Assembly (NCBI GenBank): GCA_902780845.1
Contig: CACZGZ010000001.1
Coordinates: 1 to 54,873, forward strand
Reading direction: 5' to 3'
From: an uncultured Eubacteriales bacterium
GTDB lineage: Bacteria; Bacillota; Clostridia; Peptostreptococcales; Anaerovoracaceae
DNA: 54,873 nucleotides
Within the stretch, counting starts at the first letter, position 1. Each line of letters begins with the position of its first letter. The notes beneath the pieces were generated by a model. That model had not been told where the DNA came from. It was given only the letters and a program-made list of their open reading frames with translations, and ran no database searches. A program made the position numbers and the translations under genes. This document shows, in pieces, positions 7,579 to 54,665 of this stretch.

Positions 7579-9406
7579 GGCGCACCTCCTCTCCGCTTAT
7601 TCCGAGCTGGATCTCATATATCTTCTGATATATGCCGCCTGCGGTCTTGAGTTCCTCAGGCGTTCCCTGCTCTGTGATCCTGCCCTTGTCCAGGACCACC
7701 ACCTTGTCCGCCTTGGACAGGGTCGTTATCCTGTGTGAGATTATGATGATCGTAGCCGTTCCGAACCTCTCCTCAAGGGAAGCCCTGATCCTGGCGTCCG
7801 TCTTGTTATCCACCGCGGACAAAGAATCGTCAAGTATCATGATGGGCGCGTCCTGAGTGAGTGCACGGGCAATCGCTGTCCTCTGCTTCTGTCCTCCTGA
7901 AAGGGTCACTCCCCTCTCTCCCACGAAGGTGTCGTAGCCTTCACTGAAACCTTCGATCGCTTCAGTAAGGCACGCAGCTTCAGCGGCCCTTTCTATGTCC
8001 TTTAACTGCAGATGTTCGTTGGCTATTCCAATATTGTCTTTTAACGATCTGGAGAAGAGATATGGCTCCTGAAGCACCATCGCGATGTTTTTTCTGAGGT
8101 GCTGGGTCCTGATATCCCTGATATCCACTCCGCCGATGGTTATTCTGCCGCGGCCCTCCGGTATATCGTAGAGCTTGTCCAGAAGGAGCATCAGCGTGCT
8201 CTTTCCGGAACCGGTTCCTCCGAGGATGCCCAGGGTGGATCCCGCAGGTATCTCTATATTTATATCCTTCAATATGTCATGACCCTCTTCATAGCAGAAG
8301 GTTATGCCCTCGAAACGGATGTCTCCCGTCATGTCATAGTCAGCTGCTCCCGGACGGTCGTGTTCCTCTTCTGAATCCATGATGTAGGCAAGTCTGTCAA
8401 GGGAAACTCCCGCCTTTGCCATCTCTGAAAGCATCCTTCCGAGCCTCCTTATGGGGAAACTCAGCATGCCGTTATACGATACGAAGGCCACGTATTCGCC
8501 GGAAGTCATCTCACCTTTAACTGCGAGAACCGCTCCGAATACCGTCACCAGCAAGATCTGGAGACCGCAAAGTATATCCTGAATGGAGAAGAACTTGCCT
8601 ATGACGTGACCCATGTGCACCCAAAGGCTGCAGTAGTAGTCGTTCTGTTTTTTGAAGCGCTCCTTCTCCAGTTTTTCGTTTGCAAAGGCGCGGACCACCC
8701 TGACTCCCGTCAGGTTCTCCTGAACTATGTTGGAGACGAGTCCCTCGTTCTCATCGCACTCCTTGAATCCAGTGTGCATCTCCTTTCTGAAGAGCACTGA
8801 ATATGCGAGGATGATGGGGATGGGAACGGTAGCGATAATTGCCATTTTCACGTTCATGCTGAACATGAAATAAAGCGACATGGCTATCAGTATGGTTATC
8901 CTGAATACGGTGGTCAGCTGTTCAGCCACGAAGGTCCTTATCCTGTCTACGTCCGTGGTGCAGCGCTGGATGATGTCTCCGGTGCTGTTCTTCATGTGCC
9001 AGGCATAGGGAAGCCTCGAGATATGTGAAAAGAGGGTATCCCTCATGTTCTTCACCAGAACTTCGGAACCCGCGGTGTTAAGCATGGTGGTTCCGAACTG
9101 GGCAGCCACCCTGATCAGTCCCAGGCAGGCTATAGCCAAAGCCGGTATCCAAAGGTTCTGACCTATATGACTGAAACCTCCCAGGTCTTCCACGACGGAG
9201 TTCACCCATTCCGGGAACTGTGATTCCTTGCCGCCTATGGCGTTATCTATGGTCCCTCTGATGATCTGAGGGTTCAGCATGTCCACCAAAGTCATCAGGG
9301 CCGAGCTTAAAATGCTCAGCACAAAAAGAAGCTTACTGCCCTCCAGGAACTGAAGGAGAAGCTTCGTTTGTGATCTTTTGACGTTGGCTTCGGTTGTTTT
9401 CTGCAT
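7571..9406 (-). CDS. ABC exporter, fused permease/ATPase subunit (heterodimer partner A)
   Basis: 611 aa. TM domain followed by Walker A GGTGSGKST, signature LSGGQKQ and Walker B IMILDDS. Confidence 0.9.
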   Translation of the reverse strand: MQKTTEANVKRSQTKLLLQFLEGSKLLFVLSILSSALMTLVDMLNPQIIRGTIDNAIGGKESQFPEWVNSVVEDLGGFSHIGQNLWIPALAIACLGLIRVAAQFGTTMLNTAGSEVLVKNMRDTLFSHISRLPYAWHMKNSTGDIIQRCTTDVDRIRTFVAEQLTTVFRITILIAMSLYFMFSMNVKMAIIATVPIPIILAYSVLFRKEMHTGFKECDENEGLVSNIVQENLTGVRVVRAFANEKLEKERFKKQNDYYCSLWVHMGHVIGKFFSIQDILCGLQILLVTVFGAVLAVKGEMTSGEYVAFVSYNGMLSFPIRRLGRMLSEMAKAGVSLDRLAYIMDSEEEHDRPGAADYDMTGDIRFEGITFCYEEGHDILKDINIEIPAGSTLGILGGTGSGKSTLMLLLDKLYDIPEGRGRITIGGVDIRDIRTQHLRKNIAMVLQEPYLFSRSLKDNIGIANEHLQLKDIERAAEAACLTEAIEGFSEGYDTFVGERGVTLSGGQKQRTAIARALTQDAPIMILDDSLSAVDNKTDARIRASLEERFGTATIIIISHRITTLSKADKVVVLDKGRITEQGTPEELKTAGGIYQKIYEIQLGISGEEVRHD

Positions 9407-9408
9407 TA

Positions 9409-10350
9409 CTACTTTCTGTTTTCTTTTTCCTGTTTGCGTTTGTCGTTTATGATTTTGACGTGCTCGTCAGTTATGAGAGTCACGTTGTTTTCCTTAGCCC
9501 AGGCTACGCAGCCGTTCAGAACAGTCTTCAGGAAGGGTCTGGGCACCTTGACGAAGTTCATCAGGGCTTCGTCGGTGAACTTGATGGTATCGTCACAGCG
9601 GTTAGCAGCGTACTTGATGGATGCGATGTCAACTTCCTTGGGCGCAGGGATAGGCTCCGAGATGGGTTTTTTGAATCCCTTCGGGAACTGGGTGTACCAG
9701 AAATTCGTGGAATCGCGGTAGCCGTAGTCCACGGGCACCGGCGGGAAGTTGTTCTTATTCACGCCGTCCACGATGGCATTGTAATACTCATCCTTCATAA
9801 GGATATCATCGATGTTCAGTATGAAGTGGGCGCCGTACTTGGACGTGATGCCGTTAAAGTCATTATATGGGCCGGGATGTCCGTCGTCAATATCATCCGC
9901 TGAGAACTTTCCTGCATTCTCAAGTTCCTTGTTCCAGGTGCACTCGAAGACCTGGAAGGCCTCTGCGATGACCTGAGGGCGGTCCGCTTCGCCGGGACCT
10001 GCCTGGCCGTCTTCCATGGTGAAGAGATTCTGCTTCATCTTCTCCTCGGAAGGTCCGGGATAACCGAGTCTCACAGCTTCCTTGAAGTACTTCCTGTCGT
10101 CGGGAATGAAGTTGATGGCGCACTTGCCCCTCTTAAGAAGGTTATGGCAGGTGTTGGATGTGTTCCTGCATTCCAGGAGCATGGCATATCTGCCCTTTCC
10201 TGCTATATAGTAAGGGAAGCAAAGGGAGTAAGATCCCAGGTTCAGGCTTCCGTCGTCATTTAACGTGCTGATGACCACCGTCGGCATGGGAAAGAATGCC
10301 GAGGTCTGATAGAAATTGTCTACGATCCTTAAATTCCTGAATGAACTCAT
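9409..10350 (-). CDS. Flavin-reductase-like (FMN-binding split-barrel) domain protein with an unassigned C-terminal extension
   Basis: 313 aa. The N-terminal pattern ...FFPMPTVVISTLNDDGSLNLGSYS..FPY... resembles flavin reductase-like domains. Its stop TAG lies 2 nt before the ABC gene start, implying co-transcription. Confidence 0.5.
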   Translation of the reverse strand: MSSFRNLRIVDNFYQTSAFFPMPTVVISTLNDDGSLNLGSYSLCFPYYIAGKGRYAMLLECRNTSNTCHNLLKRGKCAINFIPDDRKYFKEAVRLGYPGPSEEKMKQNLFTMEDGQAGPGEADRPQVIAEAFQVFECTWNKELENAGKFSADDIDDGHPGPYNDFNGITSKYGAHFILNIDDILMKDEYYNAIVDGVNKNNFPPVPVDYGYRDSTNFWYTQFPKGFKKPISEPIPAPKEVDIASIKYAANRCDDTIKFTDEALMNFVKVPRPFLKTVLNGCVAWAKENNVTLITDEHVKIINDKRKQEKENRK

Positions 10351-21757: not shown

Positions 21758-24742
21758 TTATTCCTCTTCTCCTATGGCATCTGTTCTAATGATAAATCGG
21801 ACTGAACTGTCGCCGTCATAGGATCCTGAGAATGAATTATACTCATCGCTCATAGATTTGAGAGCCTTAAGCCTGTCTATAAGGTCACGTCCATCGCCTT
21901 CAAGCACGTCTGTAAGTTTATGGATACCGTCTCTGTCGAACTTGGCCATTCCGTCCTTTAGTTCTTTTGCTCCTTTAAGAAGAGTATCCACGCCATCAGC
22001 CAGGTCTCCGGTCCCGTCCTTAAGCTGAGATGTGCCGCTCTTTAATTCCTTGACTCCGTCAGCAGCTTCCGTAGCTCCTTTTGACAAGGTTCCTGCTCCA
22101 TCACTCAATGTTTCGGTGCCCTTCTTAAGAGCCTTGGCCCCACTTGCTACCTTGGAAGCGCCGTCAGACAGTGCAGATGCTCCTTCATCGACTTTCTTAG
22201 CTCCTTCGTTAAGCGCGGATAATCCGGTCTTAAGAGTATCTGTTCCCTCCTTAAGCGTCTGTGCACCTGTCGCCGCCTGAGATGCGCCATCTGATAAAGT
22301 CTTGGTTCCATCCTTGAGGGCGGATGCTCCTGTTGCCACCTGAGATGTACCGTCTGATAAACTCTTAGTTCCATCCTTGAGGGCGGATGCTCCTGTTGCA
22401 AGCTGGGATGTTCCATCATTAAGTTGAGATGCTCCATCAGCTGCACTCTTGGCTCCATCTGATACCTGAGAAGCTCCCGTAGCCAGGTCACTTGCACCTT
22501 TAGCTGCTTCGGATGCTCCTGATGCCAGTTTGGATGTTCCGTCCTTAAGAGCCTTGGCTCCCTGTGCTGCAGAGCCTGCTCCCTGAGATAATTCAGATGC
22601 TCCTGATGCCAGCTGCCCTACTCCGGAAACCAGAGATTTAGAGCTTTCCTGCATCTGATCCAGTCCGCCTGCTACAGTACCAAGGTTTTCTGCTGCGCTT
22701 GAGATGCCCCTTGCTACAGCGCCTGCTCCTGATGCCAGTCCATCGGCTCCATCCTTAAGCTGTGATGCTCCGGAAGCTATACCATCTGCACCGGAGCTGA
22801 TACTGCCCGCGCCTTCCTGAATGCTTCCTGCTCCGCCTTTGATGGCCTGAAGATATTGTTCTATTGCAGCTACTGTTTCTGCGTTTTCATCATTCTTGAT
22901 ACTTGAAAGGAGGTCCGATGCAGCTCCCGCTGCGTCTTTTATGCTGTCGGCGCCGGAACTGATACTGCCTGCGCCGGTCTTGATGGATCCTGCGGCATCC
23001 TTGATACCGCCGAGTCCTGAGGAAATGCTTTCTGCTCCGGACTTAAGGCTGGTTGCTCCGTTATACAGATCTCCTTCAAGAGCAGATTTGATCTGTGTTG
23101 TACCGTTATATAAGGCACCCACGCTTTCGGGCAGGTCTGCCACCTGGGACTGCATCTGGCTTAAGCCATCAGACACACTCTTAGCGCCTGTGCTAAGAGA
23201 ATCGATCCCGTCTGACAGAGTGCTCATGTTTTCTGATACCTGGGAGGCTCCTTCTGATACTGATGCAACACCATCCTTAAGATCGGATGCTCCGGTTGCC
23301 ACCTGAGATGCTCCACTTGATAACTGTGAAGTGCCTTCTTTAAGACTCGAAGCCCCGGCTGCCACCTGTGTTGCGCCATCCGAAAGATCCGAAGCTCCCT
23401 TATTTACTGCTTCTGCACCTGTGGATACCTGAGAAGCTCCGTCTGACAGGTCTGATGCTCCCTTGGCAGCAGCTGCTGCACCGTCAGAAACCTGTTTAAC
23501 GCCATCGGATAGATCTGTTGCCCCTTTATTGAGAACTTCACCACCTGCTTCGGCGTCTTTAGTGCCCTTGGCAAGTTCAGATGTGCCGGAAGCCAGATTG
23601 CTTGCTCCCTTGGAAACCTGAGAAGCTCCGTCCTTGAGATCCCCTGCTCCGGTATCAAGAGTCTTCGAGCCATCTGCCAGTTCTTTGGCTCCTGAAGCAA
23701 GCTGATCGTTACCATCCTTAAGCGCTCCTGCTCCTTTGTCGAGTTTATCGACTCCATCCTTAAGATCTGATGCGCCGTTATCCAGTTTGCCTACTCCGTC
23801 ATAGAGCTTCTGAGAGCCATCGGTAAGTTCCCCGGATGCACTGGTAAGCTGGCCAAGTGCTGACTCCAGTTCATCAAGTGTGTCTACATCGTCAAGCTCC
23901 ACATCCTTTAGAAGTGAGTTCTCAATGATGGTCATGGCTGTCATCAGAGAGAAATCCGTAACGTCCGCTTCTATGACTACGGACTCAGGGATATCGATAT
24001 CCGCAAAACATCCGTTAAGGTCTAAGCTTTCTTTCAGACCGGGCATTGCCATGCCTACTACGGCGGTCCTGTCTCCTGTGTTGATCACCTTGCCGTTTGA
24101 AACGGTAACACCTGCTGCTTTAGTGTTATCAAGAAGCAGTCCGGAGATCACCATGAAAGGTTCATAGAGGGTGACATTCCTGCCGTTTACCACTCTTGTC
24201 TCTGAAATGTTATTTGTATAATTGAAGGTTATCTTAAGATGGCCTGTTGCTCCTGCAGCTTCCTTTGCAGTGATTTTTTTGCCATCGAGTTCATATGATA
24301 TCTTAGTCGTAACGGGGAGTTCCTTGTTAGTAGTTCCCTGATAGTAAATGTCTTTACCGTCAGCGTTCCAGATGATCTCTCCGTCATCTCCCTTGGTGAA
24401 GGTCTCTTTTCCTTTCACGTTTTCGATGTTTTCCAGATCGGCATTGTCCTTGAGGGTGTCTTCGCCATCAGGATTCTTGAGCCAGTTGCTGACTATGGTC
24501 TCCTTAGGAGTCCCATCGGGCTCTGCTATAACATATACCGTCTCTTCCTTGCCTTCTTCAGAAGAGCTGCCTCCGGATCCCAGCAGTGATTCTGCAGCTT
24601 CCGTCAGCTGATCAGCTTCTTCTGATGTGGCAGCATATGCCTTGTCAATATTAATTACTTCGTACAGTTCTCCTCCTGTCATAAGGGCGAAGGTGAGCAC
24701 TGCCAGGATCAACGCTGTAAGCCTGTTTGCTCTTTTACTCAT
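21758..24742 (-). CDS. Large secreted/anchored protein with an N-terminal signal-anchor, a beta-rich domain and about 600 aa of x-x-x-Leu-x-x-Gly heptad repeats (YhgE/Pip-like repeat type)
   Basis: Start set at ATG 24742 (MSKRANRLTALILAVLTFAL...), 8 nt after GGAGG. Long runs such as GASDLSDGASQVSTGAEAVNKGASDLSDGATQV. Immediately downstream of an MMPL gene. Confidence 0.8.
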   Translation of the reverse strand: MSKRANRLTALILAVLTFALMTGGELYEVINIDKAYAATSEEADQLTEAAESLLGSGGSSSEEGKEETVYVIAEPDGTPKETIVSNWLKNPDGEDTLKDNADLENIENVKGKETFTKGDDGEIIWNADGKDIYYQGTTNKELPVTTKISYELDGKKITAKEAAGATGHLKITFNYTNNISETRVVNGRNVTLYEPFMVISGLLLDNTKAAGVTVSNGKVINTGDRTAVVGMAMPGLKESLDLNGCFADIDIPESVVIEADVTDFSLMTAMTIIENSLLKDVELDDVDTLDELESALGQLTSASGELTDGSQKLYDGVGKLDNGASDLKDGVDKLDKGAGALKDGNDQLASGAKELADGSKTLDTGAGDLKDGASQVSKGASNLASGTSELAKGTKDAEAGGEVLNKGATDLSDGVKQVSDGAAAAAKGASDLSDGASQVSTGAEAVNKGASDLSDGATQVAAGASSLKEGTSQLSSGASQVATGASDLKDGVASVSEGASQVSENMSTLSDGIDSLSTGAKSVSDGLSQMQSQVADLPESVGALYNGTTQIKSALEGDLYNGATSLKSGAESISSGLGGIKDAAGSIKTGAGSISSGADSIKDAAGAASDLLSSIKNDENAETVAAIEQYLQAIKGGAGSIQEGAGSISSGADGIASGASQLKDGADGLASGAGAVARGISSAAENLGTVAGGLDQMQESSKSLVSGVGQLASGASELSQGAGSAAQGAKALKDGTSKLASGASEAAKGASDLATGASQVSDGAKSAADGASQLNDGTSQLATGASALKDGTKSLSDGTSQVATGASALKDGTKTLSDGASQAATGAQTLKEGTDTLKTGLSALNEGAKKVDEGASALSDGASKVASGAKALKKGTETLSDGAGTLSKGATEAADGVKELKSGTSQLKDGTGDLADGVDTLLKGAKELKDGMAKFDRDGIHKLTDVLEGDGRDLIDRLKALKSMSDEYNSFSGSYDGDSSVRFIIRTDAIGEEE
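21960..23850 (-). repeat. Degenerate tandem coding repeats (21-nt heptad units, locally 63-bp units) inside the heptad-repeat gene
   Basis: For example, ttccatccttgagggcggatgctcctgttgc occurs at 22306 and again at 22369 (63-bp offset, equal to the 21-aa unit DGTKxLSDGxSQxATGAxxLK). Confidence 0.7.
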
Positions 24743-24757
24743 TTGAAATACCTCCAA

Positions 24758-40512: not shown

Positions 40513-43272
40513 TTACTGCATCTTTCCGTGGCAGTTCTTGTATTTTTTGCCCGATCCGCAAGGACAGAGTTCGTTTCTTCCTACCTTCGGAGTCTCTCTT
40601 CTGAAGGTCTCAGGACGCTTGGCCTCTTCAGGCTTGGGTGCTTCCTTAGGCATGTTGGGAGATGACTGACGGGCCGCCTGAGATCTTGCCTCATCACGGT
40701 ATTCGTCCTTTCTCTCCTCTTCCTGTGAAACTACGCTCTTTCTGGTCGTCGTGGTCTTCTTCGTTACGTTATAGCAGAACCTTACGGTCTCCTCCTGGAT
40801 GTCTGCTTCCAGTTCCTCGAACATGTCGAAGCCCTCGTTCGCATAAGCTACTGCGGGATCCATCTGTCCCAGGGATCTAAGGCCGATACCCTGCTTAAGG
40901 TCGTCCATGGCGTCGATGTGATCCATCCAGCGGTTATCGATAACGCGGAGCATTACCATCTTTTCGAGCTCGCGCATGGTCTCCTCGCCGATCTCCTTTT
41001 CCTTGAGAGCGTAGAGTTCGTACATAGTCTTAAGGACGTTTTCCTCAAGATCTTCCGGAGTCCAGTTATGCATCTTCTCCTCGTTGTATACCATCTCGGG
41101 CCAGTTGAAGGTGATGGATCTCAGCTTTTCGTTAAGAGATGCGAAGTCCCACTCCTCTGAGTACTTGGTACCGACAGTTACAGACTGTACGATGTTTCCA
41201 ACTAAGGTCTCCATCATGCCCATGATGTATTCCTTGACCTCGTCGTTGAAGAGAACTTTGCGGCGCTCGCCGTAGATGACTTCTCTCTGCTTGTTCATGA
41301 CGTTGTCGTACTGGAGAACGTATTTACGTACTTCGAAGTTCCTGGATTCCACCCTCTTCTGGGCGTTCTCGATGGTCTTGGAAAGCATGCCTGCAGCGAT
41401 GGCGTCCTCGGACATTCCGATCTTATCCATCAGACCCTGCATGCGGTCTCCACCGAAGAGCCTCATCAGGTCGTCCTCAAGGGAAATGTAGAACTGGGTG
41501 ATACCGGGGTCTCCCTGACGTCCGGCACGGCCTCTCAGCTGGTTATCGATACGCCTTGACTCATGGCGCTCTGTACCTATGATACAAAGTCCTCCCAGCT
41601 TCTTTACCAGTTCCTGCTCTTCCTTGAATTCCTTCGTGTATTTATCTCTCAGTTCAACGAATCTCTCGTGAGCCTCAACGATATCCTTGTCGTCTGTGGG
41701 AACAAAGGTACGTGCCTTGTAGATGAGTTCATCCGAATAGTCTTCCTTTGCCATCTGCCTGAGGGCTGCGAATTCGGGATTCCCTCCCAGGATGATATCG
41801 GTACCACGGCCTGCCATGTTGGTGGCGATGGTAACGGCATCTTTCTTACCTGCCTCAGCTACGATCTGAGCTTCCTTCTCATGCTTCTTTGCGTTCAGTA
41901 CTGAATGCGGCACGCCTCTTTTGTTCAGCATCTCTGAAAGGAGTTCCGATATCTCGATGGATACGGTACCTACGAGTACAGGCTGACCCGTAGCGTGCAC
42001 TTCGCAGATCCTGTCGATGATCGCCTTGTACTTGGCCTTCTGGGTGCCGAACACCGCGTCGTCCAGATCCTGACGGATGATCTCCTTGTTGGTGGGGATC
42101 TCAACTACGTCCATTCCGTAGATATCGCGGAATTCTTCTTCCTCAGTCCTTGCGGTACCGGTCATACCTGCAAGCTTGTTATACATCCTGAAGTAGTTCT
42201 GGAGGGTGATGGTCGCGAGGGTCTTGGACTCGGATCTGATCTTCATGCCTTCCTTGGCTTCGATAGCCTGATGAAGGCCGTTGGAGTAACGTCTTCCGTA
42301 CATCAGACGTCCGGTGAATTCATCTACTATGATGATCTCGCCGTCCTGGACGATGTAGTCTATATCCCTCTTCATCATGGCGTGAGCCTTCAGGGCGTTC
42401 AGCACGTGATGGTTGTATTCCATGCTCTCGGGATCTCCGAAGTTGTCAAGGTTGAAATATCTCTCAGCCTTGGCCACGCCCTCTTCTGTGAGCATTACCT
42501 TCTTGTCCTTCTCGTCCATGGTATAGTCTTCTTCGAGTTTCAGATCCTTTACGAACTTGTCAGCTTTCGCATAAAGGTCTGTGGAATCGTCTCCTCTTCC
42601 GGAGATGATGAGAGGGGTTCTGGCTTCATCGATCAGGATGGAGTCGACCTCGTCGACGATGGCGAAGTTGAGTTCCCTCTGGATCAGGTTCTCTTTATAG
42701 ATCGCCATGTTGTCGCGAAGGTAATCGAAACCGAATTCGTTGTTCGTACCGTAGGTGATGTCGCATTCATACGCGGCTTTTCTCTGGGCGTTGTCCAGCG
42801 AGTGGACCACACAGCCTACGGTGAGCCCCAGCCATGCGTAGATCTGGCCCATCCAGTCAGCGTCACGCTTGGCCAGATAGTCGTTTACAGTTACTACGTG
42901 AACGCCTTTTCCCTCAAGTGCGTTCAGATATACCGGAAGGGTAGCCACGAGGGTCTTTCCTTCACCGGTCTTCATCTCGGCGATCCTTCCCTGATGGATC
43001 GCGATACCGCCGACGATCTGCACCCTGTAGTGCTTCATGTTGAGAACTCTCCATGCAGCCTCCCTGCATACCGCAAAGGCATCCGGAAGGATATCGTCGA
43101 GAGTCTCGCCGTTTGCCAGACGCTCCTTGAGTTTCGGCGTCATGGCTCTCAGCTCGTCGTCATCCATGGCCTCATACTTCCCCTCAAGTGCCAGGACTTC
43201 GTCAGCGATCTTATCGAGCTTTTTTACTTCTTTAGAATTAACGTCCCCAAAAATTTTTTCAAGTAAACCCAT
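40513..43272 (-). CDS. secA: Preprotein translocase ATPase SecA
   Basis: 919 aa. The N-terminus [10 protein letters not shown]...[17 protein letters not shown]-box motor motifs ([29 protein letters not shown]) and a C-terminal zinc finger [14 protein letters not shown]. Confidence 0.97.
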
Positions 43273-43387
43273 TTTGATTTTCCGCCCTTCCGCAAAGCAT
43301 CTTTGCCGGGCTTTCCTTTCTGTAAAATGTATGTTTTTTGCGGTCCCGTGTGCGGGGCTGCTTCAAGTCCGATTTTCAGCGCTATAT

Positions 43388-43396
43388 ATTATATCA
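43388..43396 (-). promoter_or_regulatory. Extended -10 promoter element (TGaTATAAT) upstream of secA
   Basis: Reverse strand reads aagtaTGaTATAATatat, about 115 nt upstream of the secA ATG. No good -35 is present, which is consistent with an extended -10. Confidence 0.45.
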
Positions 43397-43439
43397 TACT
43401 TGAGTCAAGTATGCCAGTATATTGTGGTTCTTACGGGAT

Positions 43440-43760
43440 TTACGCGTATTACTGCAGTTTTCTAAAAAAGTACGCGTAAAATATGGCACGCCATTACGCG
43501 TACTTTTGCCGATTTCAGGAAAAAGACGCGTAAAATACGACAGACAATTACGCGTACTTTTGCGGATTTCGGGAAAAAGACGCGTAAAATACGACAGACA
43601 GTTACGCGTACTTTTGCGGATTTCGGGAAAAAGACGCGTAAAATACGACAGACAATTACGCGTACTTTTGCGGATTTCGGGAAAAAGACGCGTAATTGTA
43701 GTCAAAACTTTACGCGTATTATTTGCGTTTTCAAGGTTAGTACGCGTAAATCGACAAATC
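43440..43760. repeat. Tandem array of six 54-bp units (four near-identical, two degenerate flanking), each carrying two ACGCGT-centred palindromes
   Basis: Units start at 43440, 43494, 43548, 43602, 43656 and 43710. The consensus is TTACGCGTACTTTTGCGGATTTCGGGAAAAAGACGCGTAAAATACGACAGACAA. ACGCGT cores lie at 43442, 43472, 43496, 43526, 43550, 43580, 43604, 43634, 43658, 43688, 43712 and 43742. Confidence 0.9.
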
Positions 43761-43764
43761 TCAG

Positions 43765-43806
43765 CAAACAAAAACCGAGAAGCGCTGGGCTTCCCGGTCT
43801 GCGGTT
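43765..43806 (-). terminator. Rho-independent terminator of gap
   Basis: Reverse strand has an AACCGCAGACCGGGAAGCCCAGCGCTTCTCGGTT compound hairpin followed by TTTTTGTTTG. Confidence 0.65.
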
Positions 43807-43813
43807 CAAAATA

Positions 43814-44833
43814 TTAAAGGTTTCCGTCAACCTTTGCCATGTGGTGAAGCATGTTGAGGAGGTTGGAGCAGTAACCGAATTCGTTGTCGTAGTAAGCGAT
43901 GAGCTTGAAGAAGTGGTCGTTCAGCTCGATGGTCTGTCTGGCATCGAAGATGGATGTGCAGGGATCACCTACAAAGTCGCCGGATACTACTTCATCGTCT
44001 ACGTACTCGATAACGCCCTTCATGTAAGTCTCGGAAGCTTCCTTGATCTTCTCACGGAGCTGCCAGTGTGAAGTGGGCTTCTCGGTAACGATGTTAACGT
44101 CGATAACGGATACGTCAGCTGTGGGAACTCTGTAGGAGATACCTGTCATCTTTCCCTGAAGGGAAGGAATTACGAGGCCTACTGCCTTAGCTGCTCCCGT
44201 GGTGGAAGGAATAACGTTTCCGAATACGGATCTTCCTGTTCTCCAGTCCTTGAGGGACTTGGCGTCTACTACCTTCTGCTTGGCTGTTGCAGCGTGGATG
44301 GTGGACATGAGTCCTTCCTTGATTCCCCAGTTGTCCTCAACTACCTTCATGAGAGGTGCGAGGCAGTTGGTGGTGCAGGATGCGTTTGAAACTACCTGCA
44401 TGTCAGATGAATATGTCTCCTGGTTTACGCCGTATACGAAAGTGGGAGTTACCTTATCCTTGGCGGGAGCTGAAATGATGACGTGCTTGGCTCCTGCTTC
44501 GATGTGGTCCATAGCCTTGTCTGTGGTTACGTATGCGCCGGTGCAGTCGATAACATAGTCAACGCCTGCAGCCTTCCAGGGAATTTCCTTAGCGTCTGAA
44601 TACTTATATACCTCGATGTGCTTTCCATCGATGAAAACGCCTGTGTCATCGTGGTCCAGGCTCTTCGGGAATCTTCCGAAGATGCTGTCATACTTAAGCA
44701 TGTAAACCAGATAATCCAGGTCTGCGTTTCTCCAGTTAATAGCGCGGATGTCCACGTCCGGGCAATTCATTGCTGCGCGGATGATGACTCTTGCAATTCT
44801 ACCAAATCCATTGATTCCAACTCTGATCGCCAT
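43814..44833 (-). CDS. gap: Type I glyceraldehyde-3-phosphate dehydrogenase
   Basis: Start at ATG 44833 (MAIRVGINGFGRIAR...), 9 nt after AAGGAG. Catalytic motif SNASCTTNCLAP. Confidence 0.93.
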   Translation of the reverse strand: MAIRVGINGFGRIARVIIRAAMNCPDVDIRAINWRNADLDYLVYMLKYDSIFGRFPKSLDHDDTGVFIDGKHIEVYKYSDAKEIPWKAAGVDYVIDCTGAYVTTDKAMDHIEAGAKHVIISAPAKDKVTPTFVYGVNQETYSSDMQVVSNASCTTNCLAPLMKVVEDNWGIKEGLMSTIHAATAKQKVVDAKSLKDWRTGRSVFGNVIPSTTGAAKAVGLVIPSLQGKMTGISYRVPTADVSVIDVNIVTEKPTSHWQLREKIKEASETYMKGVIEYVDDEVVSGDFVGDPCTSIFDARQTIELNDHFFKLIAYYDNEFGYCSNLLNMLHHMAKVDGNL

Positions 44834-53046: not shown

Positions 53047-54582
53047 TTAATTATCCTCCTTTCCGCCGAGCTTTGTCATTAGAAGTCCGACTTCTTCCTT
53101 AGTCGTCTTTCTGGCATCTACGATGCCCGATACCTTTCCTCCGCAAAGGACCAGTATCCTGTCGCAGAGTTCCAGAAGCACATCCAGATCTTCTCCTACG
53201 AAGATAACGGCAACGCCCTTCATCTTCTCTGCTGTCATCATATTATAGATCGTGAATGAGGTGTGTATGTCCAGTCCGCGGACTGCGTAGGCGCTCATGA
53301 GCACGGTCGGCGCCTGGGCGATCTCACGCCCTACCAGTACCTTCTGTACGTTTCCGCCGGACAGCTTTCTTACGGGGTAGTCGATTCCGGGAGTCTTTAC
53401 GTCCAGGTCTTCAAGTACCTTCTCCGCAAGCTTTTCAGGGCCCTTGGTATCGACGAAGATGCCTTTTCCCTTGTTCCAGGACCTGAGCATCATGTTCCCG
53501 GTCATTCCCATGCCGCCTACAAGGCCCATGCCCAGTCGGTCTTCGGGAACGAAGGCCAGGGATACTCCGGCATCCTTGATCTCCATGGGGGTCTTTCCCA
53601 CAAGTTCCGCGGGACTCTTTCCCTCAGGAGTATAGATTATGGATCCCTTGGAGATGTGTCTTAAGCCTGCTATGGATTCCAGAAGTTCCTTCTGTCCCGA
53701 ACCTGCAATACCGGCGATTCCAAGGATCTCTCCTCCGAAGGCTATGAAGCCCACGTCGTCGAGTCTTATCATTCCCTCGCTGTCTCTTACGGTAAGCCCT
53801 GCCACCGTGAGTCTCGGCTTGGGATCCACAGGCTCCGGCCTGTCTATATTAAGTGAGATCTTGTGTCCCACCATCATTTCCGTGAGTTCTTTTTCGTTGG
53901 TTTCAGCCGTCTTGACAGCACCGATGTATTTGCCCTTTCTGAGAACGGTGACAACGTCGGATATAGCCATTACCTCGTTCAGCTTGTGGGTGATGAGGAT
54001 GATTGACTTGCCGTCCTCCTTCATGGCCTTCAGCACATTGAACAGCTTCTCGGTCTCCTGAGGCGTAAGCACCGCCGTAGGCTCGTCCAGGATAAGGATA
54101 TCCGCTCCCCTGTAGAGGACCTTGATGATCTCTACGGTCTGCTTCTCGGATACGGACATCTCGTAGATCTTCTTATCCGGATCTATCTCGAAACCGTATT
54201 TCTCTCCGATCTCCTTTACTCTGGCGGAGATGACCTTCCTGTCCAGCTTGCCTTCTTCCTTCAGTCCCAGAACGATATTCTCAGCAGCCGTAAACACGTC
54301 CACCAGTTTGAAGTGCTGATGGATCATTCCTATCTTGTTGTCGAAGGCATCTTTCGGGGATTTGATGGATACCGGCTTGCCGTCGATCAGGATCTCTCCC
54401 TCATCGGGGAAATATATCCCGGCCAGCATATTCATGAGAGTGGTCTTTCCGGAACCGTTCTCTCCCAGAAGAGACATGATCACGCCGCGATCCAGATAAA
54501 GATCCACCGAATCATTGGCAACGTTGGATCCGAATCTCTTGGTTATCCCTCTGAATTCCACTGCATGTGTGGTTTCTGACAT
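53047..54582 (-). CDS. ABC importer ATP-binding protein with duplicated NBDs (YufO/NupO-like)
   Basis: 511 aa. The first NBD has Walker A GENGSGKTT and Walker B ILILDEPT. The second NBD has GIAGSGQKE and LSGGNVQK. Confidence 0.9.
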   Translation of the reverse strand: MSETTHAVEFRGITKRFGSNVANDSVDLYLDRGVIMSLLGENGSGKTTLMNMLAGIYFPDEGEILIDGKPVSIKSPKDAFDNKIGMIHQHFKLVDVFTAAENIVLGLKEEGKLDRKVISARVKEIGEKYGFEIDPDKKIYEMSVSEKQTVEIIKVLYRGADILILDEPTAVLTPQETEKLFNVLKAMKEDGKSIILITHKLNEVMAISDVVTVLRKGKYIGAVKTAETNEKELTEMMVGHKISLNIDRPEPVDPKPRLTVAGLTVRDSEGMIRLDDVGFIAFGGEILGIAGIAGSGQKELLESIAGLRHISKGSIIYTPEGKSPAELVGKTPMEIKDAGVSLAFVPEDRLGMGLVGGMGMTGNMMLRSWNKGKGIFVDTKGPEKLAEKVLEDLDVKTPGIDYPVRKLSGGNVQKVLVGREIAQAPTVLMSAYAVRGLDIHTSFTIYNMMTAEKMKGVAVIFVGEDLDVLLELCDRILVLCGGKVSGIVDARKTTKEEVGLLMTKLGGKEDN

Positions 54583-54665
54583 CGCTTTTTCCTTTCATTA
54601 GTGATGAAATACGCGTACAGCTCTTTTACATCATGCTACAAAGTCAAGCATGAGCCATAAAACAT

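Follow-up and report, generated by a model that had tools for sequence, protein, structure and literature searches.

Tandem arrays of 54-bp double-palindrome units form a dispersed family in uncultured rumen Anaerovoracaceae, with one member between gap and secA

Arrays of repetitive extragenic palindromic (REP) sequences and bacterial interspersed mosaic elements (BIMEs) are textbook features of the Proteobacteria whose functions are still debated. The subject of this text is an array of similar layout from a Firmicute. Six 54-bp units, each with two ACGCGT-centred palindromes, lie between gap and secA in a stretch of 54,873 nucleotides, called the window here, from an uncultured Eubacteriales bacterium of the Anaerovoracaceae (GenBank assembly GCA_902780845.1, contig CACZGZ010000001.1, positions 1 to 54,873). 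The array between gap and secA belongs to a dispersed, lineage-specific family that is found in a narrow clade of uncultured rumen Anaerovoracaceae and appears to be previously undescribed.

The closest known architecture is that of BIME-2 and REP325 in Escherichia coli. REP325 consists of six 77-bp units between yjdM and yjdN, each containing a constant linker and the palindromes Y and Z2, and is implicated together with HU in nucleoid condensation (PMC4550694). For BIMEs, roles as binding sites for gyrase, HU and IHF and as nucleoid-organising elements have been proposed (PMC4550694; PMC2817692), while REPs are defined by a conserved GT(A/G)G head and occur in more than 100 copies per genome (PMC2817692). 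As in BIME-2 and REP325, the arrays considered here are intergenic tandem clusters of about six units, dispersed among unrelated neighbours, and each unit holds two palindromic motifs in opposite orientation with a constant linker and spacers. The alternation of orientation expected of REP/BIME arrays is present as well, TTACGCGTAY and RTACGCGTAA alternating with linkers of 22 nt and 14 nt. The defining features of REPs are nevertheless missing. The family consensus has no GTAG or GTGG head, the unit measures 54 bp rather than the 77 bp of REP325, and a perfect 8-bp palindrome stands in place of a GC-rich hairpin of ~35 nt with a GTAG head. Solitary units are absent and the copy number is low, as far as it is apparent from fragmentary genomes. 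REP325 is co-transcribed, whereas terminators part the present arrays from the upstream gene. REPs and their associated tyrosine transposases (RAYTs) have been described in Proteobacteria, whereas the host here is a Firmicute, and no RAYT (Y1 transposase) gene is among the annotated genes of the window and the array loci. The layout is BIME-like, yet the arrays should not be filed as a member of the REP/BIME class.

Three other kinds of repeat invite comparison. The centromere sopC of plasmid F has 12 tandem 43-bp units, each with an inverted repeat that binds SopB, and the iterons of R1 parC form a similar centromere array. Fixed-length tandem units with a palindromic site in each are common to these and to the present family, a likeness of architecture only, as binding here is predicted. 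By analogy, a dimeric DNA-binding protein and a higher-order nucleoprotein complex of the sopC and parC type may be proposed here too. Unlike sopC and parC, the family is chromosomal with probably several copies per genome, has two sites per unit in alternating 30/24 spacing, and shows neither an adjacent partition operon nor a plasmid or phage match. The mycobacterial interspersed repetitive units with variable numbers of tandem repeats (MIRU-VNTR) of Mycobacterium tuberculosis lie inside operons and carry small open reading frames (ORFs) that overlap the flanking genes. They too are tandem units of 40-100 bp at dispersed intergenic loci that tend to be oriented with flanking genes, and their variation between strains has an apparent, not yet secure, counterpart here. 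The present arrays differ in lying between terminator and promoter or between convergent gene ends, in having no gene called within them, and in a constraint that falls on perfect palindromes and their spacing. Operators of the NrdR type, finally, comprise one pair of boxes per promoter and are tied to a regulon. Tandem NrdR boxes resemble a unit in that two palindromic sites ~30 bp apart, centre to centre, could bind one oligomer; they differ in sequence, and the arrays have 8-12 sites and no regulon. In the literature, TTACGCGTAA, TACGCGTAA, TTACGCGTA and TACGCGTA were found only in cloning primers and unrelated sites, and publications on 54-bp tandem repeats held nothing relevant to the array.

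The array between gap and secA

A sequence-only reading of the window, made by a model without database searches, had described six head-to-tail 54-bp units with twelve ACGCGT palindromes in strict 30/24-bp alternation, and both observations stand. The units begin at 43440, 43494, 43548, 43602, 43656 and 43710, and together span 43440-43749. Tandem Repeats Finder (TRF) reports the tandem core with a period of 54, 4.3 copies and 94% matches, and a separate repeat search of the array returned a spacing of 54/54/54. Each unit comprises TTACGCGT-N24-ACGCGTAA, a 40-nt imperfect inverted repeat, followed by a 14-bp spacer. The twelve cores fall at 43442, 43472, 43496 and so on to 43742, with spacings of 30 and 24 bp alternating without a single exception. 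The canonical orientation of the array is that of the minus strand, on which the unit model scores ~48 bits as against ~18 bits on the plus strand. The parts of the array are as follows.

43440-43749, minus strand: the array, six units, each of TTACGCGT(A/C)-22 nt-TACGCGTAA (40 nt) and a 14-nt spacer
43440-43479, minus strand: unit 6, proximal to secA, a diverged outer 40-mer that keeps both palindromes
43494-43533, 43548-43587, 43602-43641 and 43656-43695, minus strand: units 5 to 2, near-identical inner 40-mers with 14-nt spacers between them
43710-43749, minus strand: unit 1, proximal to gap, a diverged outer 40-mer that keeps both palindromes

The inner four 40-mers are 95-100% identical to one another and the inner units differ by 0-3 nt, slightly more than the 0-2 nt initially given. 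The outer two units share 78% identity, compared with 68-75% between them and the inner units, so that their supposed closer mutual resemblance holds, if weakly. The accompanying suggestion, that the array is old and its core the product of recent amplification or homogenisation, fits the greater identity of units within loci than between them, described below. The array takes up ~310-324 bp of the 541-bp intergenic region, or roughly 60% of a space that it had been said to fill almost entirely.

The motifs are strongly concentrated in the array. Within the 55-kb window, all 12 matches to the oriented ACGCGTAA lie inside it, against 0.59 expected; none of 100 shuffles reached the count. For TACGCGTA, 8 of 9 matches lie inside the array (0.18 expected), a count that no shuffle reached, and ACGCGT occurs only twice outside the array in the whole window. 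The sole external TACGCGTA is at 54609-54618 (AAATACGCGTACAG), ~28 nt upstream of the start of an ABC-transporter ATPase gene (53047-54582, minus strand); it could be due to chance, given the expectation of 0.18 per window.

The sequence-only reading had also placed equivalent sites on roughly one face of the DNA. At 10.5 bp per turn, however, 30, 24 and 54 bp would correspond to 2.86, 2.29 and 5.14 turns. The sites would then spiral round the helix instead of sharing a face, with equivalent sites rotating by ~51 degrees per unit.

The array family and its conservation pattern

One genome per GTDB species (185,579 species) was scanned for TTACGCGT-N24-ACGCGTAA. The scan yielded exactly one array (L019), in an Anaerovoracaceae metagenome-assembled genome (MAG), and 26 other matches that were single and due to chance. 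The L019 array has five units with the same 54-bp period and 30/24 alternation as in the window, and is flanked by the convergent ends of a dcuC-type transporter gene and a gene for a 501-aa membrane-anchored protein. Metagenome contigs were scanned for ACGCGTAA-N14-TTACGCGTA, and nearly all true matches came from one metagenome, Ga0256405. Among them are the window locus itself (L076) and an orthologue of L019 (L091; blastn identity 88.6% over a 7.7-kb alignment), which likewise has five units. Further arrays are L063a and L063b, two arrays 6.5 kb apart on contig L063; L073; L089 with its orthologue L132, downstream of rplL; and L133, upstream of a divergent Fer4-PFOR operon. The same architecture is thus found at six other intergenic loci, whose neighbours include dcuC, rplL, the PFOR operon, flavodoxin/ferredoxin genes and a HAD hydrolase gene. 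Downstream of the arrays are secA, a Fer4 protein gene, a PNPOx gene or convergent gene ends, and all nine of the arrays examined are intergenic.

The array loci are known from contig fragments. Their tetranucleotide correlation to the window is 0.76-0.96, compared with 0.1-0.5 for unrelated DNA, other Anaerovoracaceae included, and they therefore come from one genome or from genomes that are very close relatives. With a profile of 46 distinct units, no solitary unit was detected in the window, the array loci or 709 kb of other retrieved loci; altogether ~850 kb of loci other than the 55-kb window were free of solitary units. About 74 other metagenome matches and the 26 from GTDB were single, chance matches with no unit-model signal. 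BLAST of the array against phages and plasmids gave no match, and two scans of viral contigs gave only chance-like single matches. No common regulator, transposase or partition gene was found among the array neighbours in the window and the array loci.

Two side observations concern these scans. The arrays on contig L063 (3742-4010 and 10497-10830) have the same orientation and bracket a 6.5-kb block with genes for a Fer4 protein, ornithine cyclodeaminase, creatininase, DUF1653, an Rrf2 regulator and a macro-domain protein; the two are closer to each other than to other loci, and TATGATATAAT follows each. GC-rich viral contigs (L059 at 9170-9420, L053 at 8427-8650 and L060 at 2400-2455) carry iteron-like clusters containing TACGCGTA. 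These repeats, for example GTACGCGTAGTAC and GTTACGCGTAACGTTACGG with 21-bp spacing, have only the 8-mer in common with the 54-bp family.

In canonical orientation the consensus of the family reads TTACGCGTA / TTtTTTgCGAAAtCggaGATaG / TACGCGTAA / 14 nt, and an array holds 4-6 or more units. A site of 9-10 bp occurs twice in each unit in inverted orientation, as TTACGCGTA(Y) and (R)TACGCGTAA, with the perfect 8-bp palindrome TACGCGTA as core. Within the unit the site centres are 30 bp apart over a semi-conserved inner segment, T-rich and then purine-rich, with a central GAAA (positions 18-21; 1.2-1.85 bits). Between units the centres are 24 bp apart over a spacer that is free in sequence and fixed in length. 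No variation occurs at consensus positions 1-8 and 32-40, while a pyrimidine invariably occupies position 10 and a purine position 31, so that the site can be written TTACGCGTAY, two per unit facing each other; 76 of 78 sites are intact. Identity between loci amounts to 97% for the palindromes, 52% for the inner 22 nt and 31%, or about random, for the 14-nt spacer. Only one length change, a 31-bp interval in L073, is seen in 48 units. Units of one locus resemble one another more than they do those of other loci, and some unit subtypes are common to several arrays, the last unit of L089, for instance, resembling the units of L063b. There is no covariation in the inner stem, where pairing is no commoner than column composition predicts.

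The placement of the arrays relative to transcription units is also regular. The canonical strand is the strand of the upstream gene in 6 of 7 arrays and the G-rich strand on all 6 independent contigs. In the window, L019/L091 and L073 the array is set apart from the upstream gene by a strong intrinsic terminator, and a promoter with the extended -10 element TATGATATAAT follows the array in the window, L063a and L063b. The L063b array starts 10 nt past a stop codon with no other terminator, and two loci (L019/L091 and L089/L132) lie between convergent gene ends. With terminators before and promoters after the array, or convergent ends on both sides, most arrays would therefore sit in non-transcribed DNA.

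Conspecific copies, relatives and the gap-secA neighbourhood

Identical SecA or GAPDH was found on 18 conspecific contig loci, drawn from rumen metagenomes and one NCBI MAG (GCA_017940475.1), and all carry the array at the same place with no gene called within it. The number of units is 4, 5 or 6, and runs of N interrupt the array on two scaffolds, one of which has at least seven units with distinct single-nucleotide polymorphisms. These counts suggest copy-number polymorphism between strains, but the comparison is likely confounded by the collapse of repeats in short-read assemblies: near-identity of the inner units extends beyond 160 bp, and k141 short-read assemblies are the source of four of the five contigs with 4 units. 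The hypervariable minisatellite envisaged in the sequence-only reading is accordingly given weak support by arrays of 4, 5, 6 or more units, given that collapse in short-read assembly is likely.

The genes and signals next to the array in the window are these.

43814-44833, minus strand: gap, type I GAPDH of 339 aa, upstream neighbour in the orientation of the array
43772-43800, minus strand: intrinsic terminator of gap, a 12-bp stem and then a T-run, between gap and the array
43388-43417, minus strand: secA promoter, with a -35-like CTGGCA, an 18-nt spacer and the extended -10 TGaTATAAT
40513-43272, minus strand: secA, 919 aa, downstream neighbour

Read on the minus strand, the order is the gap stop codon, the terminator (43800-43772), the array, the secA promoter, a leader of ~115 nt and secA. 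The succession of gap terminator, array and secA promoter had been recognised earlier, although the genes are on the minus strand and are read from right to left. The extended -10 element ends at 43388 and ~43 nt separate it from the end of the array, close to the ~45 bp first estimated.

Sister species show what this region looks like without the array. With the first 450 aa of SecA as query, relatives were found in which this N-terminal part is 90% identical, L157 and L158 (the latter in MAG GCA_017389245.1). The secA promoter and first leader bases (TATGATATAATATATAGCGCTGAAAAT, window 43388-43425) are unchanged in L157 (about 1930-1975) and differ at two positions in L158 (about 985-1030). 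Upstream of the promoter both have genes other than those of the window, a terminator and ~60-100 nt of unrelated spacer, with neither array nor ACGCGT. Seven GAPDH homologues at 76-87% identity were looked up; six are the paralogue of the rpoN-gap-pgk operon and uninformative on the gap-secA region, while the seventh, P0008, led to the syntenic locus L146. This more distant relative (gap-lplA-secA, GAPDH 83% identical) also has no array. As sister species keep the promoter and leader without it, the array is a lineage-specific addition that lies, to judge from the sequence comparison, behind a terminator and ahead of a promoter for which relatives need no array. It may be added that the relatives' loci scanned for ACGCGT, namely L144-L150 (5-9 kb each) and L157-L158 (4.1 and 2.5 kb), contain none and that array-bearing loci have it only within the arrays, the rarity of the hexamer in the window being largely due to lower-order composition. 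Avoidance of ACGCGT through restriction was considered and dropped, since the hexamer, though rare, ranks outside the most depleted palindromes under Markov expectation.

The comparison bears directly on whether the array is a dedicated operator or activator array for the secA promoter or for gap. The proximity of the array end to the secA extended -10 speaks for such a role, and the L063a and L063b arrays likewise end 23-41 nt upstream of an identical TATGATATAAT. Yet L157 and L158 have the same promoter and leader with neither array nor ACGCGT, L146 lacks the array, the arrays of L019/L091 and L089/L132 lie between convergent gene ends where no promoter is present, and the genes next to the arrays have no pathway in common. 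The idea is thus already contradicted and a dedicated secA or gap operator is essentially excluded, leaving it a very small residual probability. The array matches no known operator of gap or secA, such as those of CggR, Rex or cre type, as had been remarked from the sequence. The sequence-only reading had named as evidence against itself that the unit belong to a dispersed family without positional conservation, or that relatives lack the array with no change in secA or gap expression. Evidence of both kinds was found: the unit belongs to a family that recurs at six other unrelated intergenic loci, and the closest relatives lack the array. A conserved position upstream of secA was likewise not found, as judged from the absence of the array in L157, L158 and L146. 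With promoter and leader kept in relatives that have no array, the implied control of gap or secA is not supported.

Some further features of the neighbourhood are worth recording. The secA leader (43259-43300, minus strand) contains a 13-codon ORF, ATG CTT TGC GGA ..., that overlaps the secA start out of frame and sits within a conserved hairpin-like block (CCGGCAAAGATGCTTTGCGG); in the sister species L157 its counterpart is just 5 codons long. The ORF may serve in translational coupling or encode a leader peptide. Many Anaerovoracaceae (L144, L147, L149, L154, L155) have an rpoN-gap-pgk-(gap)-tpi-secG operon with a second GAPDH gene, and the window gap beside secA is a paralogue separate from the GAPDH of the rpoN-gap-pgk operon. 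Elsewhere in the window, tandem repeats of 63 bp, 21 bp and 42 bp at 22262-22439 and 23712-23797 fall within a 999-aa ORF (21758-24757, minus strand) with weak Pfam matches of coiled-coil type only. This ORF adjoins an MMPL-family gene and probably encodes a repetitive surface or envelope protein.

Possible roles of the arrays

Membership of the family, the pattern of conservation and the absence from relatives are observed, whereas protein binding and a cellular role are inferred. The arrays may be a fixed-geometry, DNA-level platform of many sites for a putative sequence-specific protein, a proposal with about even chances of being right. Invariance restricted to the palindromes, at distances fixed to the base pair over otherwise free sequence, would be expected if a protein complex of fixed geometry read the array. 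In RNA or DNA hairpins, stems covary and loop lengths drift, so a hairpin would not yield this pattern; neutral minisatellite drift would not resemble it either, because indels would accumulate at the observed divergence. The orthologous arrays of L019 and L091 both have five units and single units are never seen, which also favours a platform. On this model the arrays would act as double-stranded DNA, with a dimer of the putative protein on each palindrome and a bridge over the A/T-tract inner segment joining the two sites of each unit. Stacking of consecutive units could yield a regular higher-order nucleoprotein filament of ~300 bp, which would lie in untranscribed DNA bounded by a terminator and the following promoter or by convergent gene ends. 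Such a filament might serve as a chromosome-structuring hub, an insulator or a protein-loading site rather than as a dedicated operator of gap or secA. The multi-site protein-binding platform named among the roles in the sequence-only reading remains the best-fitting one, without the control of gap and secA that it implied.

Several points weigh against a platform of this kind. No binding protein has been found, and no candidate gene is common to the array neighbourhoods. A mobilising enzyme, instead of a host architectural protein, could be what recognises the conserved sites. Since 30 and 24 bp are non-integral numbers of helical turns, a simple model of cooperative binding on one face does not follow, and the strand bias (upstream-gene strand 6/7, G-rich strand 6/6) also fits a strand-specific process that involves RNA or single-stranded DNA. 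A more specific version, to be regarded as doubtful, is that the arrays are chromosomal loading or anchoring sites of a lineage-specific DNA-binding system, that is, centromere-like or nucleoid-hub filaments that organise, insulate or segregate the chromosome. It would involve ~10-12 high-affinity palindromes per array and several arrays per chromosome, oriented with the G-rich (leading) strand.

The arrays might instead be selfish or neutral repeated DNA of the REP/BIME, REPIN or MITE (miniature inverted-repeat transposable element) type with no host function, which is the main alternative, though less likely than not. A transposase or nuclease, perhaps a member of the Y1/HUH group, would read the 40-nt imperfect palindrome as a single-stranded hairpin, with recognition and cleavage at the invariant 9-mers. 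Tandem duplication would enlarge the arrays, which would build up in intergenic gaps where they do no harm. A weak lead in this direction is that TTAC, the first letters of the site, is the cleavage tetranucleotide of IS608. Dispersal of the loci without positional conservation, absence of the array from sister species, degenerate edge units, the greater likeness of units within than between loci, and unit subtypes common to several arrays would all be accommodated. So would the alternation of site orientation with two alternating linker types, as in BIMEs (PMC2817692), and the tie of orientation to the G-rich strand; elements of the IS200/IS605 type are strand-specific (PMC6006769). No transposase gene, however, was found in ~190 kb of array-bearing sequence, and a GTAG head, solitary units and doublets are absent. 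The sole motif-bearing representative genome in GTDB has one locus, against the more than 100 copies typical of REPs, decayed sites are rare (2 of 78), and the orthologous array is stable at five units in L019 and L091. A spacer of fixed length and random sequence would not be needed in a hairpin substrate.

A further possibility is an element that acts as RNA. Its hairpins might end read-through or block it, it might stabilise the upstream mRNA, or it might be a structural noncoding RNA like naRNA4 of REP325, which offers a precedent (PMC4550694). Both strands fold far better than shuffled sequences (z-scores -6.4 and -7.5), which does not discriminate between strands. On the canonical strand, the same as that of the upstream gene in 6 of 7 arrays, a hairpin TACGCGTAA-14 nt-TTACGCGTA is followed in many units by a T-rich run, and L063b begins 10 nt after a stop codon with no other terminator. 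The T-run is nonetheless missing in several arrays (L089, L133, L019), and strong terminators precede the array in three loci, which means that these are mostly not co-transcribed. The inner stem is without covariation, the stem positions never vary and are hence uninformative on pairing, and the loop keeps its length although its sequence is random. The arrays match no Rfam family at threshold; a scan of 42900-44200 with Rfam 15 gave sub-threshold noise only, the best score being 26.4 bits against a gathering score of 245. A structured RNA, one of the roles put forward from the sequence, has therefore become improbable, given the lack of covariation support and the terminators. That a regular tandem array should belong to some other known kind is hardly credible. 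It is not a clustered regularly interspaced short palindromic repeat (CRISPR) array, as had been concluded before, because within an array the stretches between palindromes hardly differ, and cas genes are absent. Nor is it a ToxI-like repeat of a type III toxin-antitoxin system, as no toxN-like gene adjoins any array and the downstream genes are of other kinds. For a plasmid-type centromere, a parA- or parB-like gene would be looked for, and none lies beside any array; phages, plasmids and viral contigs gave no match. A coding repeat would suit units of 18 codons, since 54, 30 and 24 are all divisible by 3 and each strand has two frames open through the array, but no gene is called on the 18 contigs, the flanks are terminators and promoters, and conservation is not codon-like.

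Whichever of these readings applies, the family brings to the Firmicutes a clean signature of perfect 8-bp palindromes, spacing fixed to the base pair and random spacers of fixed length, present only as arrays and in non-transcribed gaps. For genome annotation, the arrays should not be entered as regulatory sites of secA or gap, and they break or collapse in short-read assemblies of these rumen genomes. The strict signature provides a sharply defined bait for the protein that reads the arrays. If the arrays are indeed loading or anchoring sites, they would represent a new centromere-like or nucleoid-hub system that has been defined by its DNA sites before its protein. More generally, they allow a test of whether such repeats structure the chromosome, insulate transcription units or are merely selfish.

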